A DNA stretch of 64,000 nt, from contig CP181398.1 of assembly GCA_047946875.1 (NCBI GenBank), positions 777,041 through 841,040 on the forward strand. Reading direction: 5' to 3'. Every line of letters begins with the position of its first letter. The first letter of the stretch is position 1. The notes below the pieces were generated by a model. That model saw only the letters and a program-made list of their open reading frames with translations. It was not told the origin of the DNA and searched no databases. Positions 21,702 to 41,484 of the stretch are shown here, piece by piece. Both the position numbers and the translations under genes were made by a program. This DNA comes from Candidatus Kerfeldbacteria bacterium. Its GTDB lineage: Bacteria > Patescibacteriota > Patescibacteriia > UBA10025 > JAHIVO01.

Positions 21702-21726
21702 AATATCTACCCTCTCTCTTATATTT

Positions 21727-22881: not shown

Positions 22882-22895
22882 AATATTATAACAAT

Positions 22896-23807: not shown

Positions 23808-23811
23808 TCAC

Positions 23812-24810
23812 CTATTTTTTTGCTTTTTTTATTATCCAAGCGTTATACTTTTTAAACAAGAATATTAATAATAATATCCCAAATACAATTACTATAAACC
23901 AGACTAATAATAAACGCCATGGCATGACCCAAAAAGTAACAGTTCCCGTATCTGAAACTATTTGGCTAGTTCCCGCGGTAATACTCAGAGTTGCTGTGTA
24001 TTTTCCAAAAGCAAAATTATCTTTTTCATTTCCAAATTCTTGCCAAAAGTCTGACCAAAAATTACCTGATACATTATCAACATTACCTTTTTCCCAAACA
24101 ATATCATATTTTCTGGTTGATTTTGGTAAAGTAGCACCTTTACTTGCATTGAAATCCAAAGTATCTGTAGTCTTACCAAATAAATTATTAATTTCTACAT
24201 TACCAACCGGTTTCAGATGAACATTACCAGTATTATTAAATCTAGAAACAAATCCTACAGGCAATCTATTAAACATTTTTTGACCATCTTCTACTATAAA
24301 TTCACTGATTGATCCCTGCTCATTAACATCACCCTCTACACTGGCCAAAATCAATGTACCAATTTTGGAGGCAACTTTAACCTGACCTTCTTCTGGTGCT
24401 GCTGAAGTAAAAAATAATGCTGCATAGTGACCACCTGGATCTGCATTTATCGGAGGATTAATAATAACCGAGACTTCATACCTTTCTCCAGATTCAATAA
24501 CAATAGGTCCTTCTTCGACATTCATCCAAGTACTTAAACCTATAGACTCAGTATTAAAGTCAAAATCAGGTTGACCAGTATCATCTTTTGCTGTGAAACT
24601 TCTAGCCTCTGTATAAAGCTCTATTGTTTCAGATGTTTCATTAAATAACTTAATAACTGTATTTACAGCTTGACCAGGTGTTAGACCTAATTCTAAAGTT
24701 GGAGGAATTAATGTGATTGCTTGAGCGGATGGAGCGATCCCAAAACCTATAATTGCAATAGCAAAAATAAACGCTATATAAATAATTTTCTTCTTAAAAT
24801 GTTGAAACAT
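23812..24810 (-). CDS. Secreted beta-rich cell-surface protein with C-terminal TM anchor (CscA/DUF916-like architecture, tentative)
   Basis: 332 aa. Signal peptide ending SAQA; conserved core ...PGGHYAALFF...KIGTLILASVEGD...; C-terminal LLLVWFIVIVFGILLLIFLF followed by KKYNAWIIKKAKK. Clear paralog of 24833-25768. Confidence 0.5.
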   Translation of the reverse strand: MFQHFKKKIIYIAFIFAIAIIGFGIAPSAQAITLIPPTLELGLTPGQAVNTVIKLFNETSETIELYTEARSFTAKDDTGQPDFDFNTESIGLSTWMNVEEGPIVIESGERYEVSVIINPPINADPGGHYAALFFTSAAPEEGQVKVASKIGTLILASVEGDVNEQGSISEFIVEDGQKMFNRLPVGFVSRFNNTGNVHLKPVGNVEINNLFGKTTDTLDFNASKGATLPKSTRKYDIVWEKGNVDNVSGNFWSDFWQEFGNEKDNFAFGKYTATLSITAGTSQIVSDTGTVTFWVMPWRLLLVWFIVIVFGILLLIFLFKKYNAWIIKKAKK

Positions 24811-24832
24811 TTTTTTTATTTTAACTAATTAT

Positions 24833-25768
24833 TTATTCTTGCTGTGGTGTCTCATTCTTACTAGATTTCTTAGACATTTTAATGATTAAAGCAATCAATA
24901 AAATTAATACTAGAATGATAACAATAACTATTACTATACCCGTAGTAGTCATTACCCAAAATTCAATAGCTTCCGTATCTGTTACAGTGCCGTCTGTCAT
25001 AGTCAATGTAGCTGTGAATTTACCAAAACCAGTAACATCCCAATTTGCAACTGCAAACTCTCTTACAGATCCTGCTAATATTGCACCTTTTTCGCTATTT
25101 ACTGCAATTGATTCAACGTCTTTACCAAACATATCTGTAATTACTACAGTACCAGCTGGTTTTATATGAGCTTCACCAGTATTTTTAAAACGTACTGCAA
25201 ATTTTACGGCACCATCAGAATAGTTTGTTTTATCTGAAGTAAAAGTAGCAATACTACCTGCTTCAGTATAATCTCCTGCTACAGTAGCCATGAATAGAGT
25301 ACCTAATTTTGACTCTATTAATAATTGACCGTCTTGTTGATCAGGTAATGTTTCATTAAAGAATACTGCTACATAATGTCCTCCAGCTGTTGCATTTGCT
25401 GGTGTATCAAAAGTCACAGTTACCTCTTGAGTTGCGCCAACTTTGATTGTAATAGGACCTTCATCAACATCTACCCAAGTAGCAATACCAGTTTGAGCAG
25501 CTTCAAAATCAAAAGCTGGTTGACCAGTCTCGCCCTCGGCAGTAAAATTGATTACTTCTGTTTCTAATTTTATCTCTTCTTGTGTGTCATTTTTTAGTTC
25601 TACGACTGCTACTGTCTTTTCTCCCGCCGTCAGATCAACCTCCATAATAGCGGGGGTAAGACCTAAAGCTGATACCTGTGAAGGTACAACCAGCAAAGCA
25701 GCGAAGAACAGAGTAGTGATTCCTAGAAAAATAGTTTTTTTAAACATATATTCTATTTTATTAATCAT
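24833..25768 (-). CDS. Secreted beta-rich cell-surface protein with C-terminal TM anchor; tandem paralog of 23812-24810
   Basis: 311 aa. AGGAGGGG Shine-Dalgarno upstream of the ATG at 25768. Collinear with the neighbouring gene (GETGQPAFDFEAAQTGIATWVDVDEGPITIKVGATQEV...AGGHYVAVFF...KLGTLFMATVAGD). C-terminal IVIVIVIILVLILLIALII followed by KMSKKSSK. Confidence 0.5.
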   Translation of the reverse strand: MINKIEYMFKKTIFLGITTLFFAALLVVPSQVSALGLTPAIMEVDLTAGEKTVAVVELKNDTQEEIKLETEVINFTAEGETGQPAFDFEAAQTGIATWVDVDEGPITIKVGATQEVTVTFDTPANATAGGHYVAVFFNETLPDQQDGQLLIESKLGTLFMATVAGDYTEAGSIATFTSDKTNYSDGAVKFAVRFKNTGEAHIKPAGTVVITDMFGKDVESIAVNSEKGAILAGSVREFAVANWDVTGFGKFTATLTMTDGTVTDTEAIEFWVMTTTGIVIVIVIILVLILLIALIIKMSKKSSKNETPQQE

Positions 25769-25835: not shown

Positions 25836-26852
25836 TTAAAATAAACCAGTTGTAACTAAGGTTACAGTGTTGGTATAAGTCCCGGCTTCAGTTGTACCAG
25901 CAATGGATGCCAAGAAACATAATGTAGTAGCATCAGTTGAAACAGCGCCAGTTGCAGCAGCAAAAGTCTGAGGAGAAGCAGTTAATGCTGTAGCATTTGA
26001 TGTAGTTCCTGTATCAGCACAAGATGTTGGACTCCAAATACCTATCGTATTACCTGAATCTGAAGATGAAGCACCAAATTCTTCTGTACCAGCAACGATA
26101 GTACCGCCAGCAGTATCAGAAATAGTATCAGAAGCAACTGAAGTTAATGTATTATCGTAATATACTGTAGAACTATATCCATTTGCAGCATTAGTAGTAA
26201 CTGTTGAAGTAATACCATCTTGTGAGATCAAGGAAGCTGATAATGTCCCAAGATCAATAGTATTGGCACTTAAAGCTACTGTAATTGTTGGTTCAACATC
26301 AGCCGAAACAACTACCTGATCATCAGCTATAATATCTACAGCTACTTGTTGACTATCAATTACTGCCTGAGCAGCAGTTCTAGTCTGAACGGTAATAACT
26401 CCAGTAGTACCGGTAGTTGGTGTACCAAGAGCACCAGCTCCTGAATCAGTTATTAAAACACCGTATTCAGTGGAGGCAGTTAAATTAGTAACCCCTGTAA
26501 TAGTTAGAGTATCTGGTGTACCAGCACAAGTGGCAACTAATGTACCTGGCAATGCATTTGCACCATAGGTTGTACTACCAGCAGCAATAATAGTGTCAGC
26601 TGTGCGACACCATAAACCATTATCAGCAGCCGGGAAAATAATATGCACCTCAGCCTCAGTACCACTATTTCCAGCTGGGACAGTAAATACGATATTATGA
26701 CTAACTCCGCTAGTCAAACTTTGTTTTTGTCGATTCATATGATCCTCGACTGTTTCCAATGATTCTGCTTTTGCAATTTGTGCTGGCAATAACATTACCA
26801 TAACAAAAATCGCCATAAACATTACCATGGACATTTTTTTGAGTAATTTCAT
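25836..26852 (-). CDS. Secreted T/S/G/A-rich surface protein whose C-terminal ~150 aa are homologous to the C-terminus of the 4784-aa giant protein (WxL-like cell-wall-binding domain, tentative)
   Basis: 338 aa. Signal peptide MKLLKKMSMVMFMAIFVMVMLLPAQIAKA. C-terminal TIDLGTLSASLISQDGITSTVTTNAANGYSSTVYYDNTLTSVASDTISDTAGGTIVAGTEEFGASSSDSGNTIGIWSPTSCADTGTTSNATALTASPQTF... aligns residue-by-residue with the giant protein's C-terminus. Confidence 0.6.
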   Translation of the reverse strand: MKLLKKMSMVMFMAIFVMVMLLPAQIAKAESLETVEDHMNRQKQSLTSGVSHNIVFTVPAGNSGTEAEVHIIFPAADNGLWCRTADTIIAAGSTTYGANALPGTLVATCAGTPDTLTITGVTNLTASTEYGVLITDSGAGALGTPTTGTTGVITVQTRTAAQAVIDSQQVAVDIIADDQVVVSADVEPTITVALSANTIDLGTLSASLISQDGITSTVTTNAANGYSSTVYYDNTLTSVASDTISDTAGGTIVAGTEEFGASSSDSGNTIGIWSPTSCADTGTTSNATALTASPQTFAAATGAVSTDATTLCFLASIAGTTEAGTYTNTVTLVTTGLF

Positions 26853-26969: not shown

Positions 26970-29900
26970 TTAATATAAACTTGTAGCAACTATTGTAATA
27001 GTAGAAGTATAAGCTCCTGCATCAGTTAAACCGCTAATAGAACCTAATATACATAATTCTGTTTGATGAGTGCTAACAACACCTGTGGCCCCTGCAAAAG
27101 TCTGAAGTGAGGTCGTTAAAGCGGTAGCATTCGATGTAGTCCCCGTATCTGCACAAGAAGTAGGACTCCAAATACCAATATCATATCCAGATCTCGATGA
27201 AGATGCACCATATTCCTCTGTGCCAGCTACGATAGTCCCTCCTGTAGTATCAGCAATCGTATTACCTATTGAAGTCAATGAATTATCATAATAAACCGAT
27301 GCTTGATATCCATTGGACGCATCAGTACTTACTGTCAGAGTCACTCCGTCCTGACTTACCAACGACTCTAATAATGTACCAAGATCAATACTGTTTGGAC
27401 TCAGGGATACTGTCATACCTACGAATAACCAACAATCGTTATTTTGAGAATTTACATTTGTCCCACCGGTAGCATCTATAGTATCTCCTCCACAAGCATA
27501 CGAATCTTGAACATCAGTATAAGTAACTATCTGCGTACCATCACTAGTCAGATTCCATTGAGTACCTGGAGTTGATGAGCGTAAAGTAACTAAGTTTCCA
27601 GAGGTGCCATTGAAACTTACGTTATTAAAAGTATAAGTACTACCCGCATTAAATTCTAATTGGGTATTGGCGGTATCAGCCGTGAAATTATTATCAACAT
27701 CAGCGGCTGCCGCAAAATCAACATCCGGATCAGAAGCGCCAGCATTTGTAATTGTAAGATTATAGAATCTATCGGAAGTACCAGTCATTTGACCCGATAA
27801 TATTTGCTGAGAAGAACCGTCTAGATAGACTGTACCGGACTGATCAGTGAAATTATCATTATTAGTCCAATCTCCCGCAAGATATATTGCATTGTCCTCT
27901 CCACTTTTTACATCTAGAGTACCACCGGTTATTAATAAATCATTATTTATATCAAGAATGGATTCAAGGGTAAAGGTAATATTATTTCCCGTATCATCAA
28001 AAGTAATATCATTGAAGTCGTCTGTAGTAGCGCCGGTAGAATCTATTGTCGGTGATCCGCTTGTAGCATCAAATGTTATAGTACCCGATCTGCATAAAAA
28101 TATATCATCATTATCCCAGCTTCCGCCAACTGTGATCGCATTATTTTCACCACTTACCGCATCCAGATGACCGTTTGTAATTGTAACGTTGTTAAGCACA
28201 ACTAACGGATCTTCTACTTCAACAATTAAATTATAAGTGCCAGCACCGTCATCTATAACGAGATTATAGAGTGAGCCAGTACCAGCGGTAATAAGATCAC
28301 TGGTTATATCACTCACAGAAGATGGTATATTAAAGGTTAAAGTAGAACCGACATTCGTTCCAGCGCTATTTAATAATGAAGCGCCTGACTGTAAATCAAA
28401 CTTACCATCTGTATTCATCTGTGTGCCATCTGTTTCTACATCATCATCAACATCCAAAGTACCGCCACCCGAGCCAGCATCAGTGGAAATAGTAATGCCA
28501 CCCAAACCAATATCAAGATCATATCCATTTGTATTAAGTATATCACCATCATTAATAGTTAGAGTTTTAGCTAATAAATCACTGGCTAGATCAGTGGTAT
28601 CCGGAGAAGTACCTATTTCCAAATTACCGACATCCTGCTGTGGTGAAGTATTGTCCGTAAAGGTCAAATCCCCATCCAGTATTAATTCTCCTGTTCCAGC
28701 GGTAGCGTTATTAAATGTCGTTCCGGACGCCAAGGTAAAATTACCTGCAGCATTGAGATTGCTATCTACTTCCTGCGTAAACACACCCGTATCGGCTATA
28801 TCAAACGTACCATTCACATCCATTGCATCAGCGCTAGCAACACTGCCAGTACCTGACACCTTAAAATTCTGCAATGTTTGGCTGGCTGAAGTAACGGTCT
28901 TTGTCGCGCCGGTCATGTCAATTGTCGATGTTCCAGCAGTGACTGTACCACCGGTCATATCAAGATTACCAGCCATGGTATGAGTAGCATTTGCCAGGGT
29001 AACAGAGCCTGAAAGAGTTAAATTTTGTAATGTCTGTGAGGCGGAAGTAAGGGTGCCAGTGCCATTCATTACCAAAGTATTACCTGAAGTAGCCGTGTAG
29101 GTTCCGTCAGTAAAATTCACATTACCGGAAACAGTCCAAGTTCCAGTGCCTGAGGTAATTATTTCAGATCCATCATCCGCACCGATGAAGTCAAAATCTC
29201 CCTCAATATCAAATGCTGGATTATTCGTCACGCCGGCAAACGTAACATTCTGTGTGCCGTCAGCTATGATATATAAATTACCGTCAATATCCTGGGTTGC
29301 CGTTGCAAGCGGAGTAATCGTGTACGGCGTGCTGTTATCATCATTAAATATTTCCACATCACTGCCATATGTGCGCGCGGGCATAGTCGTGGTATTGCCA
29401 TTTGATGTATCAAAGCGCACCAGTGAACTTAATGTACCTGCAGTAGGTATCGTGGTACCGGAATTAATAGTCAGACGGCCGGCGCCAGAAATCGTACCGT
29501 CAAGCGTGAAACCGCTACCGGTCCATGTGACCGTTCGGCTTGTTTCGATAGCAAGTGAATCTCCCGTATCAACATCAAGTGTATTGCTTACTAACGGATC
29601 GTCAGCCCCCGTATCAGTATCAACGGTGATCGTATTCGTCGTTGCACCGTCTCCAATGGTGAGATCATAAAATGTAGTGTCGCCCAAACCATTAATATCA
29701 TGGCTTGCCACGTTTTCACCGGTAAGTGTTACACTACCGGTCCCCGGGGTAAAATTTCCACTGTTGTTTGTCCAGTCACCCTGTACTTCCATTGCTTCAC
29801 CTTGTGCATCAAAATATATACCACTATCAAGTGTGTAGTTTCCCTTCAACACCAATAATTGCTGGCTCGCGTCATTACTCAATAAACACGGCGTACCGAC

Positions 29901-32900
29901 CGTACCGCGGCTGATTTGCAGATTATAAAATTCAGGCGCATCATCACTCCACTGGTACACCTGGCCTTGAGCAGAACTCGCGCCTGACGGATCATCAATG
30001 ACTATAGTCCCGCCGGTAACCGTCGTGGTAGTAAGTGGTTTCTCATTGTACACGATAAACGAACGGCCAGTTAATGTACCGCCGGTCATATTAAAAGTTA
30101 CTGTCTCTCCGCCGTCATTATGCCGCGCGAGTTCAATGGCTCCATCCGCAACAGTACTCGCCCGCACCGTTCCACCCGCCAGCGTGATTATCCCCTGATT
30201 CAAATTAATGTTAGTACCAACATCCACGCTGCCGTCATTGAAATTAGTAATCTGCGAATTACTTCCGCGCATGTTTAACGCACCCGTAACATCAACATTA
30301 GCTCCTGTATTGAAATTGAGAGTACCGGCTTCTTGCCAAATATTGCCGGCAACCGTCACTGCGCTTGCTATTGTTGCTGTACCACCATTAACATAAAAAT
30401 TATCCTTAACATCCACGGTTCCGCCACTAAACGAATTGGTGCCGCCGTTTATTATTAAGTCTTCTGTCGTACCATTACCAATCGTGAGTGTACCCGCGGT
30501 AACATTTATATTCCCGGCAGATGTTATATTATCTCCATTTACTGTTGCGTCGGCACTCACATTAAGTGTTGCATTCGCATCAATGTCTATATCCAGACCA
30601 ATAATCGATGTTGCCGTATCAAGATGAACTGTGGCATTGTCATCAATGTGCAGATTACCGCCAGTTGCGTCAGTGGTTACCATACCGCCAGGATCAAATG
30701 TATCACCGGTCCACGCATGCAGCTCCATGCCCGACTCTGTTGTCAGCGCGCCCGCAATAACCGCATACCGTATGCCAGCATCAGCATTATCACCGGTCAA
30801 TAACTTAGCGTTTGTCATTGGCCCGGCATTCTCATGTCGAACAATCATCCTATTTTGGTATAGATTAAGTCCGGAAATATTCGACGATATGTCAGCCGCT
30901 AGTGTTGCTGTAGTCGCATGTGGTGTTTCGCTATTATCAATATAGAGCACTATAGGATCGCCACCAGCTGTTGGATCTGTTGCCGGGATAGTGAACGTAC
31001 CACCTGCACTATCGCATTCATACTCGGATGCAGTTCCGCCGTTTGTTGCCGCGTGGACTGTCAATGGATCTGCGGAACAGTCATACACACTTATACCATC
31101 ATCACTGTAAATCGTTCCGGTCAACGTAATACCATCAAATATCCAGCAGTCGTTATTTCCGGAATCAGTGTTGGTGCCATTTGACGCATCAATCCAGTCG
31201 CCGCCGCACGCGTACGAGTACTTTACATCAATGTATGATACATCGGTCTGCGTGCCGGTTACCACCAAATTCCAGTCGCTGGTCGTAGAACTTTGGAACG
31301 TTATTTCATTTCCGACACCTGAAGAACCGGCCCAGTTGATATTTGGAAACGTATACGTCGATCCCGCTTCATATTCAACAGTAACGCCCGCTGTTGTAAT
31401 TGTATAGTTATTTTCGGTTTCAACGGCTGCTCCGAAATCAACAGTTCCGCCACTATTGGTAATAGTTAGGTTATAAAAATCAGAAGAACCTGTCATAGTG
31501 CCTGACAATGACTGAGTAGAAGAACCGGCCAAAACAACAGTTCCATTGTTATCAGTAAACGTGCCATTATTGGTATAGTTACCATTAATATCAAGTGTTG
31601 AACTACTGGAAGCAGATAGCGTGGTAGCAGTATCAATACTCACGTCTCCACTCACTACTAATGATGGATCGTTGGTATTCAAATCTACCGTGGTTGCGCC
31701 GGTACCATCTTGGATAAGTATTAAATCACCAGAGATTGGATACGACCCCGATGCGGCTGTAATAGAATTTGATGAATTACTTCCATACAACTCCACATCC
31801 CCTCCGTACGTACGGGCATCAAATGTAGTATTGGCAATATTACCAGCACTGGCATCATAGCGGACAATACTATTGATCGTTCCTCCCGTGCCAGGACCAG
31901 CGGATGTATCAGTAAACCTAAGTGTGCCAGCTCCTTCAACAGTACCTAAATTAGCAAAAGTTGAGCCGGTATGTGTTACTGTACGACCAGCGCCAATCGA
32001 GAGTGTACCACCCGCACCAAAATTTCCATAAGCACTACTGATTGTGAAATCCGTATTTATAACCGAGATAGCTACATCAGACGCCGAATCAAGTTTGAAA
32101 TCATAAAAAGTTTCCCCGCCAACATCTATAGTATTGTCAGCGCCATGCATTATAACTTCTCCGGTCCCTTCTATTAAATCTGTCAGATCGGCCTTAATAT
32201 ATAGATCACCATAAACACTTATATCGCCACTGATATCATAGGTGCCACCACTATCCGGATCGAGCGAAAGATTATCAAAACTTCCACCCCCCGACACAGT
32301 TACTGAGCCAGTATTAGTAAATTTAAATGTTGAATCCTCTGTCGTTTTATTAACTATAACCATACTTGTTATTGGTGTACCACTTCCTGACATTTCCCAT
32401 GTCTTAGCGCCACCTGCTGCAGCTGAAAGTTTAGCAAACCAAACATCGTCCCCTGCTCCAGCACACGTATCCCTTGCTAATGTATTTGTTATCTTGATAT
32501 CACCACTACCCGTAGCTGACAGTATTCGATCTCCACTACACGCCCCTATAATATCAAAATATAAATCATAAAATGTCCACGTACTACTATTGCCACCAAT
32601 ATTACCTGCAGCGGGCAGCCCAACAGTTACTGTCCCACCGGTCATTGTGATAACGCCATCACCTGTAATATCCCCGCCGTTGGCGGTAAGATCGTTTGAA
32701 CCGGTCAGTGTCGTGCCGGTACCAACGGTGACATCACCGTTTGTAGTCAGCGCATCAGCTAAGGTAATGGTGCCGGTACCGGATGTCTCAAAATCATACA
32801 GAGATTTACCCGCCGCGGTGAGTGAGGGAGTAACACCGTCCATTACCAAAGTATGCCCAGAAGTGGCTGTAAATGTATCACAATTAGTAAGGTCTACGTT

Positions 32901-35900
32901 ACCCTCAATGTTCCAGGTTCCAGTGCCGGTATTAATCGTGTTAGTAGACGCTCCGCAGGAGAAATTGCCACCAACGTCTAAACTGACATTATTATCAGCA
33001 CCATCAATCGTTACGCTGTTAGTCCCGTCACCAATTGTTAGGTTATTATTTATATCATTAGCGAGAGCAGAAGCATACTCAAATGTGTATGATGGTGAAC
33101 CTCCTGACGGTATTAATTCTAAGTTATAGTAAGATCCTCCAGATCCATCTCTGGCAATGTCTGTATCCCCAGTACCGGTGTACTGAAAAGTAGAAGTATT
33201 TCCTATTAACCTCCCCTCGTTAAAAAAAGGCATAGTCTCATCAGTAGTACCAGATCCTGAAAGAATCCATGTTTTTTCACCGGCATCCAATGTATGAAAT
33301 CGTTCTATTACCTCACAAAAATCCCAGGTTGTGATCAGCTGATTGGTAATGGTCATACTGCCAGTCCCAATAGCCGTCGTAGTATATTCACCACATGGAA
33401 GTTGCGTAAAAGAGAGATTATAAAATGTCCAGTTGCTGTCTCCGCCTATAGTCCCATCCGTAGACAAGGTTACCGTACCGCCGGTCATATTGACCGTACC
33501 ATCACCAGTCAGGTTACCACCGTGAACAACCAGAGAGCCAGTACCTTGCACGGTGGCACCGGTATCCACATACTGATTACCACCAGTGCCTGACGTGGTC
33601 ACCCCACCACCCGGATCATAGGTATCACCAGTCCAAATATGCAATTCAAATTCTGAATCAATAGTCACGTTATTTGAATCAACCTTAAACTTAATATCGC
33701 TATCACCTGTATCCCGATCGCCTGACTCAAGATTGGTGTTGGTAATAGACGCTCCAGTATCATTCCTGACAATGACTGCGGCCGCGTACACATCAACATC
33801 AGCTGTATCAGTTCCGTCAACCTTGAATGCAGTTGTTCCTTCATAGGTGCCGTGATCATCCAGGTAAATAGTGACAATATCTCCGCTTGAGGATGCAATA
33901 CTGCCGACTGAATAATCCCCATTGCCATCCGTAGTACCAAAATTCATATTATTACCATTAACATTCACCTGAACTAATATGCCAGAACCGGCATTCGTTG
34001 ACTTATTCTCCTGATACACCGTGCCACCAATGGTAATAATATCGCTAAAAAGCCAATTCGTATTGTTTCCACAATGAGTATTAGTCCCGTCATCAGCATC
34101 AATTTGAAAACCAGTATCTGTTGCATCAGACCGCGACACATCCACATACGAAACCACACTAGTATTAGCTACATCCAGAAGCCATGTGCCGGAAGTAAGG
34201 TTTGAATTTCTAAATACAATATCATTACCGGAAGAACCAGTCCAATCAATATTAGTGAACGCATATGTAGATCCAGAATTATATTCCACTTTTACGTTAT
34301 CATTAACGGTAAAGGTGCCGGTAGCTGTAGCTGCGGCCGCAAAATCAATACCAGGGGTAAATGAAGTAGCACAGCCAGAAACACTTCCAGTGGTATTAGT
34401 AATGGTCAGGTTATAAAAATCAGAGGAACCGGTCATCGTACCCGATAAGGTCTGTTGCACGGTACCGGCCAAAACGACTGTCCCGCTGTTGTCAGTAAAC
34501 GTGCCGTTATTGGTATAATCGCTCTTTAAAGTTAGGCTAGTACTGCTTGGCGCGGAAAAAATCGTATTAACGCCAATAGTGATAGTCTTGGTAAAATTAA
34601 TAGTTGGATCGTTTGTATTCAGATCAAAAGTAGTGGCTCCAGTTCCGCCCTGTATCAGTTCCAAGTCTCCATAAACATTATATGTACCCGCTGCTGATGT
34701 GACCGTATTAGAAGAGTTATTACCATATATTTCAACATACAGATAATCACGAGCTGACATCGTTTGGCTGTTGCTTGACGAATCAAAACGCACGATAATA
34801 TTAGTTGCAAATGCTCCTGTTGTTGGGAATGCGGCTGATGGTTGGTAGACCAAAGTGCCATTACCCATCACGTAGCCGTCGAAAGTAAATGATCCCGTAC
34901 TCGTTACAGTCAAAGAACGATCTATACTAATATACAAAAAATCATTAGTGTTAACGTCAAGCGTACCGGTAACGATAGGATCATCAGTGCCCTCTATTGA
35001 TACTGTACCTGCAGATCCATCACCAATAGTAAGATTATTAAACGTGGTATCACTTGAGCCATTTATTGCAGGAGAGCCTGTCATGGTAACGGTACTTGTA
35101 CTTGCTGTAAAGGTGCCATTATTATCCCAATTACCATCCAAGCTATATGTATTAGCTCCATCTGAGGCAAGTGTGCCATCAATACTAATAGTAACATTAT
35201 GCGCGTTCATCGTTCCTGCGGAATCCATAGTTAATGTATCATCAGCCAAAATATCTATGGTGTCGTCAGCATACGCACCATCTTCATCCACATTCAATAC
35301 ACCCGCATTGGCAGTATGCATGATATTGCCATTTTGATCATTATCATAAGAGCCCAGCTGGGTAACAGTTAATGTCACTCCAGTATCAGCACTTCCAACT
35401 GACAATACGTTCTGATTTAGTACCATGCCGGTAATATCATCCGCACCGTCATACTCTGTAACAGCAGTAGATTGATCCCCATCTGTCGCTGTGTCAATGA
35501 ATACGGTTATTACTTCTCCTCCTGACAAAGCTGGGTCCGTATCAACATTCCAGGCACTTGCGCTTATTACGAAACTATCAGCTTGCAACACACCATTGAC
35601 TGCAATTTTCACCGTACCGGAAGAATTTGATGAACCTGCAACATTTGTATTAGATGAAGGAAAAGTCCAAGCAGTATTATTGCTACAGTCGGTGTTAGTA
35701 CCGTCATCAGCATCAATATCCACACCGGGAGTAGCATCAGACCATGACACGTCCACATAGGAAACAACACTTGAGTTGGTCACATCCAAATCCCAAGCGG
35801 ATGAGCCCGTTGAACCTTTGAAGTAGATTTCATTTCCAGATGAACCCGTCCAATCAATATTAGTAAATGCGTAGGTTGATGTGGAATTGTACTCTACGTT

Positions 35901-38900
35901 TGCATTGTCATTAACCGTGAAAGTACCTGTAGCCGTAGCAGCATCAGCGAACACAATGCCAGCAGTAGTAAATGATGCGCAGCCCGTGACAATTCCGGAT
36001 GTATTTGTGACAGTCAAATTATAAAAAGATTCTGAGTCTGATGTTATGGTTTGTGTTGATGAACCATCCAAGACAACCGTATTTCCACTGGTGGCAGTAT
36101 ATGTCCCGTCTGTAAAATCAATGGCTCCAGATACAGTCCACATACCTGTTCCAGAAGTTATAATCCCAATTCCAGAACCACCACCACCATAAGCTAATAC
36201 ACTTGTAATATTTACTGTTGGGTTGTACGTTCCGCCGTCAAGAGTAATATTTTGCGTATTTTGCGCCGAGACATACAAGGAATTCGAAAAATTTAGAGTT
36301 TGACTTGCACCAGTACCTAACATAACTGTACGTGCATTGGTGGTGCTATTATTGTACACCTGAACCTGATGGCCATACGTACGCTGTGACAATATTTGAT
36401 CATTAAACGTAGCGTCCATCCTGAGCGACGATGAAAGCGTTCCAGTCGTAGGGAAAGCTGATGAAGGCTGATATGCAAAAAGTCCACCTCCTGAAATCGT
36501 ACCATCAAGCGTGAGTGAACCCGCATTACCAAGCGTAACAATATTTGAAACGCCAAGTGATAATGTATCACCCGAGTCTATATCAAACGTACCCGTAACA
36601 GTTGGATCTTCAGATCCACCCACTGTTACTGTCCCTGCGGTCCCATCACCAATAGTAAGATTATTAAATGTAGTATCACTAGCGCCATTTATAGAAGAAG
36701 TTCCTGTCATAGTGACTGTACTTGTATCAGCTGTGAAGGTACCGCCATTAGTATAATCTCCTGCAATACTTATAGCACTAGATCCTGCAGTAAACACGGC
36801 ACTACTATTAATAACTAAATCCCCTCCAATAGAAAGGGCTTCATTAGTGGTACCAAATGTTTGAGAACCGTTAATAGTTAAATCATTCGCAACATTGAAT
36901 CCCAAAGAATTCACATCAATAGTCGTAGTATCTGCAATCACAATATTATAGAAACTTACACCGGCCTTACGAATATCAATTCCTCCTACTGAATTATCAT
37001 CATCAATAATAAAAGTTCCCCCTGATATAGTGCCCCATCTAGCCAGCGCTGTATTCGACAAATTTATCTCCTCTGTGGTAATTGTACCTGATCCGGTCAT
37101 GGTAAAATCAAGACCTGTGTCATTTGGAGCCATATAAAAATATCCGGAAGGACCTACAGAATGAGTACCACCATTGAAATTGAAATCACCTTCATTTATT
37201 ACCCAGTATCCAACTTCCGTAACTACAGACCCTGCATTCAGATTTAATACACTTGTTGCCCCGTCAAGAGTAACTCTATCTAGAATATCCACATCAGCGC
37301 TACCACTTATTGTTGCCGTACCACCAGTCAATATAAAATCATCACCAATATCCGTGGTACCACCACTGATATTCACCGCACCTGATGTCATATTTAAATC
37401 TTCTGTAGTGCTATTACCAATTATAAAAGTTCCAGCGGTATGATTCAGAGTCCCTCCACTTACCAAAACTTCATTAGCTTCTACGATTGTAGAATTTTGT
37501 ACATGAAGCGTACCTCCGGATGGAACATCAATATCTCCAGCAATAACATTACTAATCGTATCAAGATAAGCAGTCCCTCTGACATCAAAATCTCCAGTTA
37601 CACTAGTCGTAGTAATCCTACCATTTGGATCAAAAGTATGACCAGTATATACAAAAAGTTGAATCCCTGTCTCCACAACCAAAGTATCAGTTATTGCATC
37701 TATAGCATCATAAAGCATATCTACTGAGTTTTGGTCATTATCATATGCATCCATATCGTCAACATTTATACTGGTTCCTTGCTCATGCCTCACCATTACC
37801 GTATTTTGATATATTCTCAAATTATCTCCGGTAACTATATCCCCTCCGTCACTAACAGTAACCGTATTACCCAATATTGATCCGCCGTCAATATAAAATG
37901 TCAGCTGGTCTCCTGCGCTGGTAGTAACTCCGGTAATGGAAAAATTACCACTAGAATCGGTTGCATCACAATCTCCGCCCGCAGTCGCATTTACAGCCAC
38001 ACAAACACTAGTACCTGTAGTAATTGGGGTTCCTTCAGTATCATCAGTATAAGCTATACCATCAAAATCATAGCCACCGCCACCACCGCCACACGATGTA
38101 CATTCAGCTAATATAAAATTAGTTTGAAGTGGATCATGCGCGGGGGCATTATATCCAGACAATGTAATATCATGCTTATGACCAGCTGTTGCAAATTGAC
38201 TACCTGCGCTTGCACTACCATCTATACCTGCTGAATCTCCTGAAGTCCCAACTGTATTTGAATGAGCAACTCCAGCACTACCACTAGTAGTACCTGAGCT
38301 ATCTGCTGTTTGGATATATCTGTTTTGATAAGGACTAGTGTTAGAGATAGTAGTCCAACCAGTTGGTGGGGTTCCGTCAAATAGAGCAATCATCCCAATA
38401 GGAACAGATGGTGGTGTACCATTTTGCTCATATAATTTAAGAGTTACATATTCAGGTACTGATGTAGCACTAGCCGTAGTAGTAGGAGTGCTAGGTGCAG
38501 CATGAGTATGAACTATTGCATCATGGACATTGGGAGTAATTCCTGAAAATACACCGACACTACCTGAACCAGCGTTAAGAGACCCCCAGGTAACTCCGTG
38601 TGTATGAGTATCACTTCCACCGGTCGTATGTGATGAGTCAAGTTTCACTAAGCGACTATCGGCCGCTGAAAAACGTACCCAAGGACTAGATGGTTCTGAT
38701 CCAGTCTTAAAAAAAGCGAAAGCATCAAGCGGTATAGTGCTTGGCGTGGAATCAAGTGAATCATAACGATAAAGATAATATGTATAATGTGCCGGATTAT
38801 TATCAGCAGCTGCCACAGTAGTAGTATTAGCTGTATGAGTATGAGCTCCTGTCGATATCAACGTACATCCTCTTCCACATATAGTATCTGGACCCGTACT

Positions 38901-41270
38901 ACTTGATCCACTACCAACGCCCGTAGAGAAAGTATGACTATGAGTTGCCGCGCCACCACTAGTAGAAAATGCAGATGCTCCTCTTACAAAATCACCATCA
39001 TAGGTTGTAATATTAGTCCAACCAGCTCCTGGCGTAGAATCAGCACCTAATAAATATAAATAAGTTGCATCAATAGCCATCTGCCATTGTCGTCCTTCAT
39101 CCCAAGTATCTCCTACTGAAGCTGGTCCTACAAAATAAAGAGCTGGACTTTCTTCTGGAGTTTTAAAATTATAAGTTACTTCTATAGATTCCCCTGCCTT
39201 AATAGTTCTATTCCAAGATAAGGTATTTAATATTTCTGTACCCGAATCATATTTACCCAAAGAAGCATCACCATAATCTTTTAATTCATAATCACTGTTC
39301 ACAATTTCTTTAATTTCACCAACGATATCTTCATAAGCAGTAACTTTTAATGTCATTGGTTGATATATGTAAGGAAATACCCTAGTTGGACCATCTCTCT
39401 GGATTGTAAATCTTGGCGATTCTTTGATTTGAAAAGTATCCGATATCGAATTGGTACCATTATAATGAGTAGCGGTAACATTAATTTGATAAGTTCCTGG
39501 AACATCGGTTGTATAAGTAGCAAAATAATCAGGTCCATGATATTCACCCTTAATCTGGCAAAATTCACTAATTGTTATAGTTCCATCAGCTGTTTTTTTT
39601 GTTATTACATTTCCATTTGGATCAATAATATCTAACACAACATCAGCATTACAAACTATGTCACCTGCATGATCTAGAACACCAATTGAAAAAAGTGTTT
39701 CCTGACCTATTTTTTGAATAGCAAAGTCAGGATTAATAGCTAATACCCCCCAAGTAAAGTCTTGTATTATTTCCTTTATCACACCTTCCTGGTCAATAAT
39801 CATTTTGACCTGATATTTGCCTGGTTTATCAAATTTCGCGTTATCAAATGAATATTTATCAGTTTTTATCTTACCTTTATCAACCTTTTCTACTGTGTAT
39901 GTTGCCTCAATAACCTCTCCTTTTGGATTTAATAATTGTATATCAGTCACTACTCTTTGTTTTGGATCAACTCCCAAAAATGCAAAAGATGATTCTTCTT
40001 CTACATCAACTTCAATTATAGGTTTTTCATTTACCGTCAGATCATTGTCTTCGATAGTAACACTTTGTTCTATTTCTGCTACCACTTTTTCAGCTTCTTG
40101 TAACTCAATGTCAAAAAATAGTCCATCTAAATATGCCGTTGATTCTTCTGCCCCTGGAACAGCATTATAATCTAATTTAACTTGAAACTTATTAAATTCT
40201 TCTAATTCATAGATATTATCAATATCAACTTTAAAATATCCCTCATTGGTTGCATTACTCACTTCTTCATAAAGAGAAATTGATCTAGCAATCTGCCAAG
40301 TATCTCCATCATCAACAGAATATGATAAAATTACCACATCTTCATTATCGGGAAATGTATCCGCAGCAAATGAGACATATAGTGAAATTCTGGTGATCAG
40401 CGCTGTATCTAACACAGAATCTGGAATGCTATATCCCCAAGCCTTGAAAATATTATTTTGATTCGGTACTACCAACTCTGGCTCAGCAATTTCTACAACT
40501 ATATCTTCTACTTCAGTGGCAACTTCAATCTCCTCAACTAGAGGATCTGGTTTCTCAATAATTTCTATTATAGTTTCTTCTGGTTCAGTTGTAGTATCTT
40601 CAATTGGCACTTCTGGTAAATCATTAACATCTGAAGTAACAACTTCATCTATCGTACCTACTGGAATAATAATTTCGTCTTCCTCTCCCAATACTTGAAT
40701 TGGCTTGTTGTTAAAAAAAGCAGAATTATCTTTTGTGAAATTATTTTTAGGAGAGTTGGATAATAAATCTACCTTCTTAGCATTTTCTGCACTCATCCAA
40801 CCGCTTACTTCTGTTGGCTCTAAAATAATATTATAAATTTTAGATGAGTTTTCATCCGCTTGGACCATAAATATATATGTAAAAAAAGTTACCTGAATTG
40901 TTAAAAATGCAAAAGCAACTAGCGACACCGAGTAAATAAAGACGGAAAACTTTTTACTGATCCATAATAATTTTATTTTTTCAAAAGACCAACCAGGTTG
41001 AATAACATACTTACTTACTTCTGGCTCAGGTAATTTTTCTTTATCATTTTCATTTCCAAAGTTTGATTTTTTAGAAGAAGGTAGTAATTCCAAATACAAT
41101 TTTTCTACTGTTTCATTTTCATATCGTCTATCTTTTCTTACTCCGATTCTTACTGCTTTTAATTTTCCCGTTTTATCCCAATTCCGGAGTGTGTTTGGAT
41201 GAATACTAAAGATCTTACTGACTTGATCAATAGTCAATAAAGTAGGCAAAGACTTAAAATTAACCCCCAT
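26970..41270 (-). CDS. Giant (~4766-4784 aa) cell-surface protein. Domain order: N-terminal MerR/excisionase-type HTH, TM signal-anchor, acidic linker, Ig-like domains, phage-tail-collar-like HxH modules, >3000 aa of T/G/N/S-rich beta-helix-type repeats in four large modules, C-terminal ~150-aa domain shared with the 338-aa protein.
   Basis: One uninterrupted 14.3-kb ORF. The track start at 41324 is TTG; the first ATG is 41270 (MGVNFKSLPTLLTIDQVSKIFSIHPNTLRNWDKTGKLKAVRIGVRKDRRY = HTH_17-like). The only TM segment is FSVFIYSVSLVAFAFLTIQVTFFTYIFMV, 110 aa further on. The module-terminal motif ...YTF.NIDW.GSSGN...SYVDV...GTNT..NN..W.F recurs four times. Confidence 0.8.
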   Translation of the reverse strand: MGVNFKSLPTLLTIDQVSKIFSIHPNTLRNWDKTGKLKAVRIGVRKDRRYENETVEKLYLELLPSSKKSNFGNENDKEKLPEPEVSKYVIQPGWSFEKIKLLWISKKFSVFIYSVSLVAFAFLTIQVTFFTYIFMVQADENSSKIYNIILEPTEVSGWMSAENAKKVDLLSNSPKNNFTKDNSAFFNNKPIQVLGEEDEIIIPVGTIDEVVTSDVNDLPEVPIEDTTTEPEETIIEIIEKPDPLVEEIEVATEVEDIVVEIAEPELVVPNQNNIFKAWGYSIPDSVLDTALITRISLYVSFAADTFPDNEDVVILSYSVDDGDTWQIARSISLYEEVSNATNEGYFKVDIDNIYELEEFNKFQVKLDYNAVPGAEESTAYLDGLFFDIELQEAEKVVAEIEQSVTIEDNDLTVNEKPIIEVDVEEESSFAFLGVDPKQRVVTDIQLLNPKGEVIEATYTVEKVDKGKIKTDKYSFDNAKFDKPGKYQVKMIIDQEGVIKEIIQDFTWGVLAINPDFAIQKIGQETLFSIGVLDHAGDIVCNADVVLDIIDPNGNVITKKTADGTITISEFCQIKGEYHGPDYFATYTTDVPGTYQINVTATHYNGTNSISDTFQIKESPRFTIQRDGPTRVFPYIYQPMTLKVTAYEDIVGEIKEIVNSDYELKDYGDASLGKYDSGTEILNTLSWNRTIKAGESIEVTYNFKTPEESPALYFVGPASVGDTWDEGRQWQMAIDATYLYLLGADSTPGAGWTNITTYDGDFVRGASAFSTSGGAATHSHTFSTGVGSGSSSTGPDTICGRGCTLISTGAHTHTANTTTVAAADNNPAHYTYYLYRYDSLDSTPSTIPLDAFAFFKTGSEPSSPWVRFSAADSRLVKLDSSHTTGGSDTHTHGVTWGSLNAGSGSVGVFSGITPNVHDAIVHTHAAPSTPTTTASATSVPEYVTLKLYEQNGTPPSVPIGMIALFDGTPPTGWTTISNTSPYQNRYIQTADSSGTTSGSAGVAHSNTVGTSGDSAGIDGSASAGSQFATAGHKHDITLSGYNAPAHDPLQTNFILAECTSCGGGGGGYDFDGIAYTDDTEGTPITTGTSVCVAVNATAGGDCDATDSSGNFSITGVTTSAGDQLTFYIDGGSILGNTVTVSDGGDIVTGDNLRIYQNTVMVRHEQGTSINVDDMDAYDNDQNSVDMLYDAIDAITDTLVVETGIQLFVYTGHTFDPNGRITTTSVTGDFDVRGTAYLDTISNVIAGDIDVPSGGTLHVQNSTIVEANEVLVSGGTLNHTAGTFIIGNSTTEDLNMTSGAVNISGGTTDIGDDFILTGGTATISGSADVDILDRVTLDGATSVLNLNAGSVVTEVGYWVINEGDFNFNGGTHSVGPSGYFYMAPNDTGLDFTMTGSGTITTEEINLSNTALARWGTISGGTFIIDDDNSVGGIDIRKAGVSFYNIVIADTTTIDVNSLGFNVANDLTINGSQTFGTTNEALSIGGDLVINSSAVFTAGSSAISIAGDYTNGGTFTADTSTVTMTGTSSINGASDTTFNNLTIGDGTAGTVTVGGSEDPTVTGTFDIDSGDTLSLGVSNIVTLGNAGSLTLDGTISGGGLFAYQPSSAFPTTGTLSSSLRMDATFNDQILSQRTYGHQVQVYNNSTTNARTVMLGTGASQTLNFSNSLYVSAQNTQNITLDGGTYNPTVNITSVLAYGGGGSGIGIITSGTGMWTVSGAIDFTDGTYTATSGNTVVLDGSSTQTITSDSESFYNLTVTNTSGIVTGCASFTTAGIVFADAATATGTFTVNDNANVEYNSTSTYAFTNIDWTGSSGNEIYFKGSTGSSAWDLDVTNSSVVSYVDVSWSDATPGVDIDADDGTNTDCSNNTAWTFPSSNTNVAGSSNSSGTVKIAVNGVLQADSFVISASAWNVDTDPALSGGEVITVFIDTATDGDQSTAVTEYDGADDITGMVLNQNVLSVGSADTGVTLTVTQLGSYDNDQNGNIMHTANAGVLNVDEDGAYADDTIDILADDTLTMDSAGTMNAHNVTISIDGTLASDGANTYSLDGNWDNNGTFTASTSTVTMTGSPAINGSSDTTFNNLTIGDGSAGTVSIEGTDDPIVTGTLDVNTNDFLYISIDRSLTVTSTGSFTFDGYVMGNGTLVYQPSAAFPTTGAFATNIIVRFDSSSNSQTMSARDYLYVEIYGNNSSNTVTSAAGTYNVYGDLELIQGGTGATTFDLNTNDPTINFTKTITIGVNTIFSAPSSTSLTLKSDYTNNGTFTDNSGTVVLAGTVQQTLSGTMTGSSDFYNLTITNTTGSVSGCATSFTPGIDFAAAATATGTFTVNDNVKVEYNSGSTYAFTNIDWTGSSGNDIVFRNSNLTSGTWLLDVANTSVVSYVDVSRSDATDTGFQIDADDGTNTHCGNNTNWLFSDIITIGGTVYQENKSTNAGSGILVQVNVNGNNMNFGTTDGNGDYSVGSIASSSGDIVTIYLDDHGTYEGTTAFKVDGTDTADVDVYAAAVIVRNDTGASITNTNLESGDRDTGDSDIKFKVDSNNVTIDSEFELHIWTGDTYDPGGGVTTSGTGGNQYVDTGATVQGTGSLVVHGGNLTGDGTVNMTGGTVTLSTDGTIGGDSNWTFYNLSFTQLPCGEYTTTAIGTGSMTITNQLITTWDFCEVIERFHTLDAGEKTWILSGSGTTDETMPFFNEGRLIGNTSTFQYTGTGDTDIARDGSGGSYYNLELIPSGGSPSYTFEYASALANDINNNLTIGDGTNSVTIDGADNNVSLDVGGNFSCGASTNTINTGTGTWNIEGNVDLTNCDTFTATSGHTLVMDGVTPSLTAAGKSLYDFETSGTGTITLADALTTNGDVTVGTGTTLTGSNDLTANGGDITGDGVITMTGGTVTVGLPAAGNIGGNSSTWTFYDLYFDIIGACSGDRILSATGSGDIKITNTLARDTCAGAGDDVWFAKLSAAAGGAKTWEMSGSGTPITSMVIVNKTTEDSTFKFTNTGSVTVSGGGSFDNLSLDPDSGGTYDISGDISVYGDLYIKADLTDLIEGTGEVIMHGADNTIDVGGETFYDFKLDSASDVAISVINTDFTISSAYGNFGAGGTLSIGAGRTVTHTGSTFANLGTVEGAGTLRFTDTSAGPGTGGTINSIVRYDASAGNIANTTFDARTYGGDVELYGSNSSNSITAASGSYPISGDLILIQDGTGATTVDLNTNDPSLVVSGDVSIDTATTLSASSSSTLDINGNYTNNGTFTDNNGTVVLAGSSTQSLSGTMTGSSDFYNLTITNSGGTVDFGAAVETENNYTITTAGVTVEYEAGSTYTFPNINWAGSSGVGNEITFQSSTTSDWNLVVTGTQTDVSYIDVKYSYACGGDWIDASNGTNTDSGNNDCWIFDGITLTGTIYSDDGISVYDCSADPLTVHAATNGGTASEYECDSAGGTFTIPATDPTAGGDPIVLYIDNSETPHATTATLAADISSNISGLNLYQNRMIVRHENAGPMTNAKLLTGDNADAGIRYAVIAGALTTESGMELHAWTGDTFDPGGMVTTDATGGNLHIDDNATVHLDTATSIIGLDIDIDANATLNVSADATVNGDNITSAGNINVTAGTLTIGNGTTEDLIINGGTNSFSGGTVDVKDNFYVNGGTATIASAVTVAGNIWQEAGTLNFNTGANVDVTGALNMRGSNSQITNFNDGSVDVGTNINLNQGIITLAGGTVRASTVADGAIELARHNDGGETVTFNMTGGTLTGRSFIVYNEKPLTTTTVTGGTIVIDDPSGASSAQGQVYQWSDDAPEFYNLQISRGTVGTPCLLSNDASQQLLVLKGNYTLDSGIYFDAQGEAMEVQGDWTNNSGNFTPGTGSVTLTGENVASHDINGLGDTTFYDLTIGDGATTNTITVDTDTGADDPLVSNTLDVDTGDSLAIETSRTVTWTGSGFTLDGTISGAGRLTINSGTTIPTAGTLSSLVRFDTSNGNTTTMPARTYGSDVEIFNDDNSTPYTITPLATATQDIDGNLYIIADGTQNVTFAGVTNNPAFDIEGDFDFIGADDGSEIITSGTGTWTVSGNVNFTDGTYTATSGNTLVMNGTGTLTSASQTLQNLTLSGSVTLANATHTMAGNLDMTGGTVTAGTSTIDMTGATKTVTSASQTLQNFKVSGTGSVASADAMDVNGTFDIADTGVFTQEVDSNLNAAGNFTLASGTTFNNATAGTGELILDGDLTFTDNTSPQQDVGNLEIGTSPDTTDLASDLLAKTLTINDGDILNTNGYDLDIGLGGITISTDAGSGGGTLDVDDDVETDGTQMNTDGKFDLQSGASLLNSAGTNVGSTLTFNIPSSVSDITSDLITAGTGSLYNLVIDDGAGTYNLIVEVEDPLVVLNNVTITNGHLDAVSGENNAITVGGSWDNDDIFLCRSGTITFDATSGSPTIDSTGATTDDFNDITFDDTGNNITFTLESILDINNDLLITGGTLDVKSGEDNAIYLAGDWTNNDNFTDQSGTVYLDGSSQQILSGQMTGTSDRFYNLTITNAGASDPDVDFAAAADVDNNFTADTANTQLEFNAGSTYTFNNVSFNGTSGNLVTLRSSTPGTQWNLTSDGTQIVTYTDVQDSYACGGDTIDATGGTNVNSQNNDCWLFVGMTVSLSPNSIDLGTLLESLVSQDGVTLTVSTDASNGYQASVYYDNSLTSIGNTIADTTGGTIVAGTEEYGASSSRSGYDIGIWSPTSCADTGTTSNATALTTSLQTFAGATGVVSTHQTELCILGSISGLTDAGAYTSTITIVATSLY

Positions 41271-41484
41271 TTTTTTTGGGTGCTTATTTTTTTTACCTAG
41301 TTTAAACACTTTAAATATATGCAAAACTTTTTTATTATTTTAGCTTTGCTTAAGTTAGCAAAAAATTTAACTTAACTTAACAAACATAACAAAACTATTA
41401 TATAATATTATTATGATTTTGTCCAATAAAAATAACTCTCATCATCTTTATAAATGATTCGAATGATTTAAATTATGATTAAAC

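Follow-up and report, generated by a model that had tools for sequence, protein, structure and literature searches.

Patescibacteria (the candidate phyla radiation [CPR]) are tiny, mostly uncultured bacteria that are thought to attach to host cells, most plausibly by means of their giant surface proteins. CPR cells have few classical signaling systems. Here, we describe a 64,000-nucleotide stretch of a Candidatus Kerfeldbacteria genome (contig CP181398.1, positions 777,041 to 841,040; hereafter, the window; G+C content, 35.5%) and, within it, a giant gene whose product joins a DNA-binding head to a very large predicted surface part, downstream of a conserved DNA element at the gene’s promoter.

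Locus and Protein Architecture

The gene encodes a single polypeptide that consists of a lysine-rich tail, a cytoplasmic winged helix-turn-helix (wHTH) domain, a tether of ~45 residues, one membrane helix with its N terminus inside (N-in), and an ectodomain of ~4,630 residues (Table 1). A preliminary description of the window had proposed one chain with a cytoplasmic HTH, a single membrane pass, and a giant ectodomain; this architecture is borne out and is retained in orthologs, and the earlier translation of the 5′ end (...KKMGVNFKSLPTLLTIDQVSKIFSIHPNTLRNWDKTGKLKAVRIGVRKDRRYENETVEKLYLELL...) agrees with ours. The product is 4,784 amino acids (aa) long when counted from a TTG at 41324 and 4,766 aa when counted from an ATG at 41270. 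The TTG is probably the real start, because orthologs carry a GTG or TTG 18 to 25 codons before a conserved [IV]DF motif, together with a homologous lysine-rich tail. In a by-eye comparison with the closest ortholog (L004), the 18 codons from the TTG to the ATG (41271-41324) contained four nonsynonymous and no synonymous changes, which hints that the coding sequence is also constrained at the nucleotide level, by an overlapping leader or binding site. The first 178 residues, modeled with AlphaFold2, formed four regions, namely, a disordered lysine-rich tail, a winged helix, a low-confidence linker, and a long helix.

TABLE 1 Features of the giant gene and its upstream region (window coordinates)
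Feature	Position	Strand	Basis or remark
Giant gene	26970..41324	minus	Open reading frame (ORF) uninterrupted over 14.3 kb; stop codon 26970-26972
Sigma-70-type promoter, TGGACA-17 nt-TATAAT	41397..41425	minus	11/12 consensus positions; orthologs GGACA-17-TGnTATAaT
Box A, candidate operator, TTGTTATGT, TTGTTAAGT, TAAGTTAA	41367..41392	minus	Tandem 9-nt units with invariant TAAGT
Box B, GCTAACTTAAGC	41348..41359	minus	Partial inverted copy of Box A, exactly 16 nt past TAAGT
Cytoplasmic wHTH, HTH_17/MerR superfamily, BldC/Xis-like	41094..41240	minus	Pfam, NCBIfam, AlphaFold, Foldseek, alignment
Flexible linker	40950..41093	minus	Predicted local distance difference test (pLDDT) 51-59; ends in juxtamembrane motif KYVxxPGWSxxKIKLLxISKK
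Single transmembrane helix, N-in, FSVFIYSVSLVAFAFLTIQVTFFTYIFMV	40863..40949	minus	Sole hydrophobic segment; flanking charges
Extracellular part, ~4,630 aa, T/G/S/D/N-rich	26973..40862	minus	N-terminal module (~280-650) defines giant-protein family
C-terminal domain of giant protein	26973..27419	minus	70% identity over 149 aa to C terminus of 25836..26852 product

The DNA-binding domain occupies residues 11 to 59 (counted from the ATG). Its earlier assignment to the HTH_17/MerR-excisionase type was upheld by a profile search of the N-terminal 157 residues, which passed the Pfam cutoffs for HTH_17 (PF12728; 30.5 bits, cutoff 27) and for MerR_1 (PF13411; 30.2 bits, cutoff 21.6), the latter profile being matched over positions 2 to 47 of 69 only. 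The MerR model PF00376 scored marginally under its cutoff (28.1 versus 28.2), the top NCBIfam match, BldC (NF033787), failed its family score (32.1 bits, cutoff 77), and the excisionase model TIGR01764 failed likewise (18.2, cutoff 28.8). The AlphaFold2 model gave a beta-alpha-alpha-beta-beta-alpha wHTH (pLDDT 93-95 over residues 21 to 80), for which Foldseek against the PDB ranked BldC-DNA complexes at the top (6AMK; TM-score 0.86, root mean square deviation 1.1-1.5 Å, 37% identity), followed by Xis of mycobacteriophage Pukovnik (4J2N, 36-37% identity) and, lower, by classical MerR proteins that match through their N-terminal 50 residues only; MtaN, TipAL, SoxR, and RacA were also among the fold matches. 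The model contains no MerR coiled coil, the helix at residues 70 to 80 being followed by a short helix (83-89) and then the low-confidence linker, and no effector-binding domain was found with Pfam or NCBIfam; the wHTH leads directly into the linker and membrane helix. We therefore place the domain in the MerR superfamily by fold, as one of the minimal BldC/excisionase kind and not as a classical MerR regulator.

A Kyte-Doolittle scan of all 4,766 residues found one hydrophobic segment (~108-136), in keeping with the single membrane anchor described before, and no second anchor elsewhere in the protein. The segment was modeled as a helix (pLDDT, ~95). Four K/R and one D/E occur in the 15 residues before it and QADEN follows it, a charge pattern shared by most orthologs; this positive-inside signature indicates an N-in, type II anchor. 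Indels of orthologs in the linker are in frame, and the linker is 66% identical to that of L004. The helix and its juxtamembrane region (40863-40990, minus strand) are conserved more strongly than any other stretch of the protein (94% identical in L004; KYVxxPGWSxxKIKLLxISKKFSVFxYS..LVAFAF..IQ..FF.YIF..QAE), and the polar S, Y, and Q residues within the helix suggest a specific membrane partner.

Conservation of the Fusion

Orthologs were identified by a scan of GTDB species representatives that was seeded with HTH peptides and used residues 3 to 650 as the query. Fifteen loci were found in Patescibacteria metagenome-assembled genomes (34-45% identity over the query), and each of them carries the HTH, a linker with in-frame indels, and the hydrophobic helix. 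HPNTLRNWD and R.G.R.DRRY are invariant in 16 loci, as are the DNA-facing residues of the recognition helix (N26, T27, R29, and N30) and residues R41, R45, R48, and R49 of the wing. Relative to L004, there are 17 synonymous and 7 nonsynonymous codon changes in the HTH and 13 and 2, respectively, in the membrane helix, and the HTH is, on these counts, under purifying selection. The ectodomain is only 39 to 42% identical to that of L004; by this comparison, the HTH and helix are the constrained parts and the ectodomain evolves fast. L004 itself (JAYEHE010000194.1) is found on a 3.3-kb contig in a Zixiibacteriota bin, and two further loci (L011, CAZBNI010000001.1; L012, CAZVMV010000004.1) come from bins labeled Gammaproteobacteria; because of the gene family, all three are probably misbinned or mislabeled Patescibacteria contigs.

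Being seeded with HTH peptides, the scan is blind to orthologs that lack the HTH, and a profile of residues 1 to 650 was therefore searched without this bias against 1.84 billion representatives. This gave 3,245 matches at E values of <1e-3 and 789 at <1e-30, many of them proteins of 2,000 to 7,700 aa; a word-indexed protein search retrieved few relatives (2 and 6 matches), and the profile and genome scans were far more informative. Among the 150 best representatives, 26 have the HTH (residues ~7-100) and then the helix (~96-143), nearly all of them giants of 2,250 to 6,700 residues, and the truncated gene call of P0006, which starts within the HTH, adds at least one further case. Most other members of the best 150 have the hydrophobic segment at the extreme N terminus, as a plain signal anchor or signal peptide. 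Orthologs without the HTH and with an ordinary signal peptide, which the preliminary description had named as contrary evidence, were not found; a plain signal anchor in place of the HTH occurs only in more distant family members. As far as the profile search can be read, the HTH is a head that recurs, without being obligatory, across a large family of giant surface proteins.

The giant protein shows the motifs of the family module (DxFPxNEDV..SYS.D.G.TW, SNAT..GY, and FxWGVLAxNPDxS; residues ~280-650). Pfam recognized no domain in it besides the HTH, and no sensory domain. The ectodomain is predicted to be an extracellular fiber or adhesin, that is, a fiber-like structural protein.

Promoter and Upstream Element

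The promoter stands at a near-fixed distance (128 to 154 nt) from the HTH coding region in 16/16 loci, and the two boxes downstream of it make up a bipartite element with the consensus TTGkTAAGT-N16-CTAAnnnRAGC. TAAGT is invariant in all 16 aligned loci and, within TTGkTAAGT, starts 17 to 19 nt past the −10 box in the 12 loci of canonical layout. Adjacent 9-mers that match at 8 to 9 of 9 positions occur in five loci (L003, L002, and L008 as tabulated, plus the window and L004, which reach 8 of 9 each in a by-eye reading of TTGTTATGT and TTGTTAAGT in a shifted register), compared with a background frequency of ~0.001. TAAGT-N16-CTA[AG] is present at the same position in 13 of 20 HTH-bearing loci, with 8 other matches in 1.29 Mb, and promoter and element are arranged in the same way in L089, a distant HTH-bearing member counted among the 13. 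The composite motif occurs once in the window and, among the loci examined, only upstream of HTH-headed giant genes. Over the 160 nt upstream, the window and L004 have 88% identity, and they differ at one-third of the third-codon positions in the HTH; the upstream noncoding DNA (41348-41425) is better conserved than the synonymous sites of the HTH and than much coding sequence.

An RNA structure was considered for the upstream element and rejected. A permissive Rfam search returned chance-level matches only, RNAalifold found no consensus structure in the aligned upstream regions, and hairpins between Box A and Box B, or a small one at Box B, had pairing and covariation no higher than those of shuffled sequences. 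The rigid spacing of the element and its conservation in primary sequence, where the transcript begins, are more in keeping with a protein-binding site on DNA than with an RNA structure. In classical MerR-type promoters, an operator dyad lies within an overlong spacer of 19 to 20 bp; the conserved promoter here has a 17-nt spacer, and its −10 box precedes the element.

Stand-Alone Relatives of the HTH

The recognition helix HPNTLRNW is shared by 65 other loci (40-63% identity), of which 62 are stand-alone genes of ~60 residues; the source groups (L019 to L081) are Saccharibacteria, Doudnabacteria, Parcubacteria, and others. A large gene lies directly downstream on the same strand in nearly all of the 25 loci tabulated. 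Ten downstream genes were scanned against Pfam, and five were of restriction-modification, helicase-nuclease, or OLD types (Eco57I/MmeI-type methylase-nucleases, SNF2/ResIII helicases, a PLD nuclease-helicase, and an OLD-type ATPase-TOPRIM protein); an N6_N4 methylase is also among the genes that follow a stand-alone HTH. The same head is fused to HsdM in one relative and, elsewhere, to a HAD hydrolase, a PAS domain, and multipass proteins, and it is also found in a protein of 119 residues whose C terminus has a hydrophobic (membrane) segment. The ~60-residue Patescibacteria gene would appear to be a so far undescribed MerR-type counterpart of the controller proteins.

The top 7-mers upstream of the stand-alone genes are TGTTAGG, GTTAAGT, and TAAGTTA. 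G[GT]TAAGT occurs in 25% of these upstream regions and in 4.8% of background chunks, and ACTTA-N2-4-TARGT palindromes occur in 11% and 0.2%, respectively; some loci (e.g., L033 and L051) reproduce the whole layout of a −10 box, a tandem TAAGT pair, and an inverted ACTTAA. The motif upstream of the stand-alone genes offers independent, though correlative, evidence that such domains may recognize TAAGT at their own promoters.

A split version of the giant gene was sought and rejected, as no giant-protein module was found within 3 kb of the stand-alone HTH genes. Small ORFs and regulators upstream of HTH-less relatives also gave no support for a split; one belonged to the TrmB family and one was a Cys-rich, non-HTH ORF of 70 residues. 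The TrmB-family gene (L082, 57-797) lies 700 nt upstream of the HTH-less P0014 on the same strand, and a different palindrome (CGTGAAA-N9-TTTCACG; L082, 1400-1450) follows a similar promoter. In this single case, a TrmB-family regulator may act in trans instead of a fused head.

Proposed Mechanism

The evidence points first to autoregulation, because a conserved site lies at the gene’s own promoter and because stand-alone, operon-heading relatives have the same motif. The reading that we favor, and hold with about even confidence, is that the HTH is a BldC-like, membrane-tethered “fused controller” that would repress its own giant gene by binding to Boxes A and B. The HTH would bind the TAAGT repeats just downstream of its own promoter, as its stand-alone relatives may do, reading the tandem 9-bp units of Box A head-to-tail in the way that BldC reads its sites, with Box B as a further contact 16 bp on (two helical turns, center to center). 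Binding would repress transcription, and the level of membrane-inserted protein would feed back on what may be the cell’s most expensive gene, one that takes up >1% of a genome that we take to be ~1 Mb in this group. Since the protein is tethered to the membrane and transcription, translation, and insertion are simultaneous, the operator would be held beside the membrane, where the HTH concentration should be highest.

Several points weigh against autoregulation through this element. The link between the HTH and the element is one of co-occurrence, and the element could bind another factor or act as an RNA sequence. The strict composite motif is absent from 7 of the 20 HTH-bearing loci, a subclade (L005, L006, L007, and L012) has a variant element in which TAAGT starts at +35 to +36, and in two distant members the element is upstream of the promoter or inverted relative to it. 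TTGkTA in Box A and TAACTT in Box B, 20 bp apart, could also form a second promoter. The background used for enrichment is mostly coding DNA, and the loci are phylogenetically related. The base-contacting K26 and R30 of BldC are N26 and N30 here, so that the BldC binding mode is not simply transferable. The scan of this genome for further sites covered 64 kb, and a wider regulon is possible.

An extended form of autoregulation, in which the protein is a self-limiting device, is unlikely. The HTH would be first off the ribosome while RNA polymerase was still near the start of the 14-kb gene, would bind in cis to an operator some tens of base pairs away from the promoter, and would block reinitiation; after insertion, it would keep the locus at the membrane, where mechanical load, host contact, or shedding of the 4,600-residue fiber might tune the number of available HTH heads.

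Alternative Explanations

Very improbably, the fusion is an artifact of annotation or translation, with the HTH as a separate small protein or with an internal non-ATG start that leaves the secreted protein without it. No ATG lies in frame from the HTH to the helix, as stated earlier; two in-frame TTG codons right behind the HTH (L58 and L60, counted from the ATG) and the existence of the HTH as stand-alone genes speak for an artifact. Shine-Dalgarno-like sequence is absent at both TTGs, L58 occupies a conserved hydrophobic helix position, and initiation at these codons would still give a 47-residue cytoplasmic tail and not a signal peptide. The interval between HTH and helix is stop free in 16/16 loci, its indels are in frame, and selection at the protein level acts on the linker and juxtamembrane motif. 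Four orthologs have no in-frame ATG, GTG, or TTG in the interval, and the remaining ones have scattered, nonconserved starts without Shine-Dalgarno-like sequences; a conserved non-ATG start that would split off the HTH, raised in the preliminary description as evidence against the fusion, was not found there.

ToxR-like signaling, tethering, and proteolytic release are the functional alternatives, and they partly overlap with autoregulation. ToxR- or CadC-like signaling, in which the ectodomain would sense mechanical load or contact with a host or surface and alter the tethered HTH at its own or other promoters, is rather doubtful, and it is compatible with autoregulation. The likeness to ToxR and CadC that had been proposed holds for the topology (cytoplasmic HTH, single pass, and outside C terminus) and not for the HTH, which is not of the ToxR (OmpR) type; Pfam gave no Trans_reg_C (OmpR/PhoB-type) match in the giant protein, which thus does not belong to the ToxR family. 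Transmembrane transcription regulators are widespread (56% single pass), and HTH_17 and MerR types have been cataloged among them (Demey et al. 2023, PMC10269533). The strongly conserved helix and juxtamembrane motif could transmit a signal; the flexible, low-confidence linker offers no obvious conformational path for one, and Pfam recognized no sensory domain. The ectodomain diverges fast, whereas the HTH and DNA element stay constant, relatives with the same module do without any HTH, and there is one copy of the motif in 64 kb, all of which argue against signaling. It is distinctly unlikely that the HTH is a tether or adaptor and not a transcription factor, anchoring either the chromosome or a protein partner to the membrane where the fiber is located. 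The fold matches include RacA, a MerR-like wHTH protein that attaches the chromosome to the pole. RodZ shares the layout of an N-terminal cytoplasmic HTH, a single pass, and an extracytoplasmic domain, and by binding near the 5′ end of its own gene, the HTH of the giant protein would keep the locus at the membrane for the minutes that synthesis of a 14-kb mRNA takes. The HTH of RodZ is of the XRE type (HTH_25), binds MreB and not DNA, and has no sequence relationship to that of the giant protein. The closest relatives of the giant protein’s HTH are small stand-alone genes in the operon-heading position of regulators, the conserved element overlaps the transcription start, where repressors usually bind, and the invariant basic wing and recognition-helix residues make binding to protein only unlikely. 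Regulated proteolysis, by which the HTH would be freed by cleavage in or near the helix and act as a soluble BldC-like regulator, is quite improbable: the helix, with its conserved polar S, Y, and Q, is part of the most conserved segment, and a freed fragment would have the size of the stand-alone relatives, but no linked protease gene was found in the window and no cleavage motif was identified, and helix conservation can be explained otherwise, e.g., by oligomerization or by a type II anchor that inserts a 4,600-residue passenger.

Genomic Neighborhood

Upstream of the giant gene are a GT2 glycosyltransferase gene and a divergent LCP (LytR-CpsA-Psr) gene, and an LCP gene also adjoins the giant gene in three distant HTH-bearing loci. 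Downstream are six secreted proteins, including WxL-interacting-like, dockerin, cohesin-like, and CarboxypepD_reg proteins; the giant gene lies in a cell envelope neighborhood. The run of WxL-interacting-protein-like, dockerin, cohesin-like, and CarboxypepD_reg/PEGA genes (19230-25768, minus strand) resembles a surface assembly cluster. The next gene after the giant gene (25836..26852, minus strand) encodes a secreted protein of 338 residues, and the C-terminal domain that it has in common with the giant protein may be a shared assembly or wall-binding domain. A gene of 340 to 370 residues follows the giant gene in L083, L084, L087, and L089 too. A second giant gene in the window (5308-15252, minus strand; 3,314 aa) has a multipass T4SS_pilin (PF18895) N terminus and no HTH, followed by Big_5, Big_7, Big_13, Sortilin-Vps10, and DUF6242 domains.

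Comparison with Known Systems

BldC of Streptomyces (6AMK/6AMA; NF033787) is the best sequence and fold match, being likewise a minimal MerR-like wHTH that has neither coiled coil nor effector domain. Lacking a dimerization domain, BldC binds head-to-tail to 9-bp direct repeats (PMC5859096), and candidate tandem 9-bp units lie at the promoter of the giant gene. BldC is a soluble protein of 68 residues, whereas the domain described here heads a 4,784-residue membrane protein and misses the NF033787 cutoff. Excisionases and recombination directionality factors (Pukovnik Xis, RdfS; TIGR01764) have the same fold in a small wHTH and would resemble it in oligomerizing on DNA repeats; unlike them, the giant protein’s HTH scores under the TIGR01764 cutoff and has a glycosyltransferase, an LCP protein, and secreted wall proteins for neighbors, and no integrase or attachment site was found near the gene.

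Controller (C) proteins are small HTH proteins that head, or are fused to, a costly or dangerous gene and regulate themselves; N-terminal HTH regions of restriction-modification methyltransferases are of this kind too. The closest relatives of the giant protein’s HTH likewise head restriction and defense operons, one being fused to HsdM, and by analogy with C proteins, autoregulation by the Patescibacteria HTH proteins is putative. Classical C proteins are XRE-type HTH dimers on palindromic C-boxes, in contrast to the MerR/excisionase-type HTH found here.

In ToxR and CadC, the winged helix is of the OmpR type and the periplasmic sensory domain is small (~100 to 250 residues). Like these regulators and TcpP and BcrR, the giant protein combines a DNA-binding domain in the cytoplasm with a membrane span and a part outside the cytoplasm; unlike in ToxR and CadC, the outside part is a ~4,630-residue fiber-like protein that also occurs without the HTH in relatives. 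The census of transmembrane regulators includes 151 HTH_17, 350 MerR_1, and 386 MerR examples, and a recognized DNA-binding domain with at least one transmembrane region, as the giant protein has, is its definition of such a regulator (PMC10269533). The giant protein may regulate transcription while membrane bound, given the candidate operator at its own promoter. We found no description of an HTH-headed giant surface protein or adhesin of CPR bacteria in the searchable literature, and a preprint on giant genes (10.1101/2023.11.21.568195) does not mention HTH domains.

The loci make up a conserved family in which a surface giant bears its own DNA-binding head, and both a precise DNA site (TTGkTAAGT-N16-CTAAnnnRAGC) and a recognition helix (HPNTLRNW) are now open to testing. 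The widespread small HTH of Patescibacteria defense operons is thereby linked to a candidate binding motif. If the self-limiting device were real, an episymbiotic CPR cell would have a direct line from its surface to a gene. If autoregulation is true, the controller protein logic of restriction-modification systems would extend to structural surface proteins, and a BldC-type domain would join the membrane-bound transcription factors.

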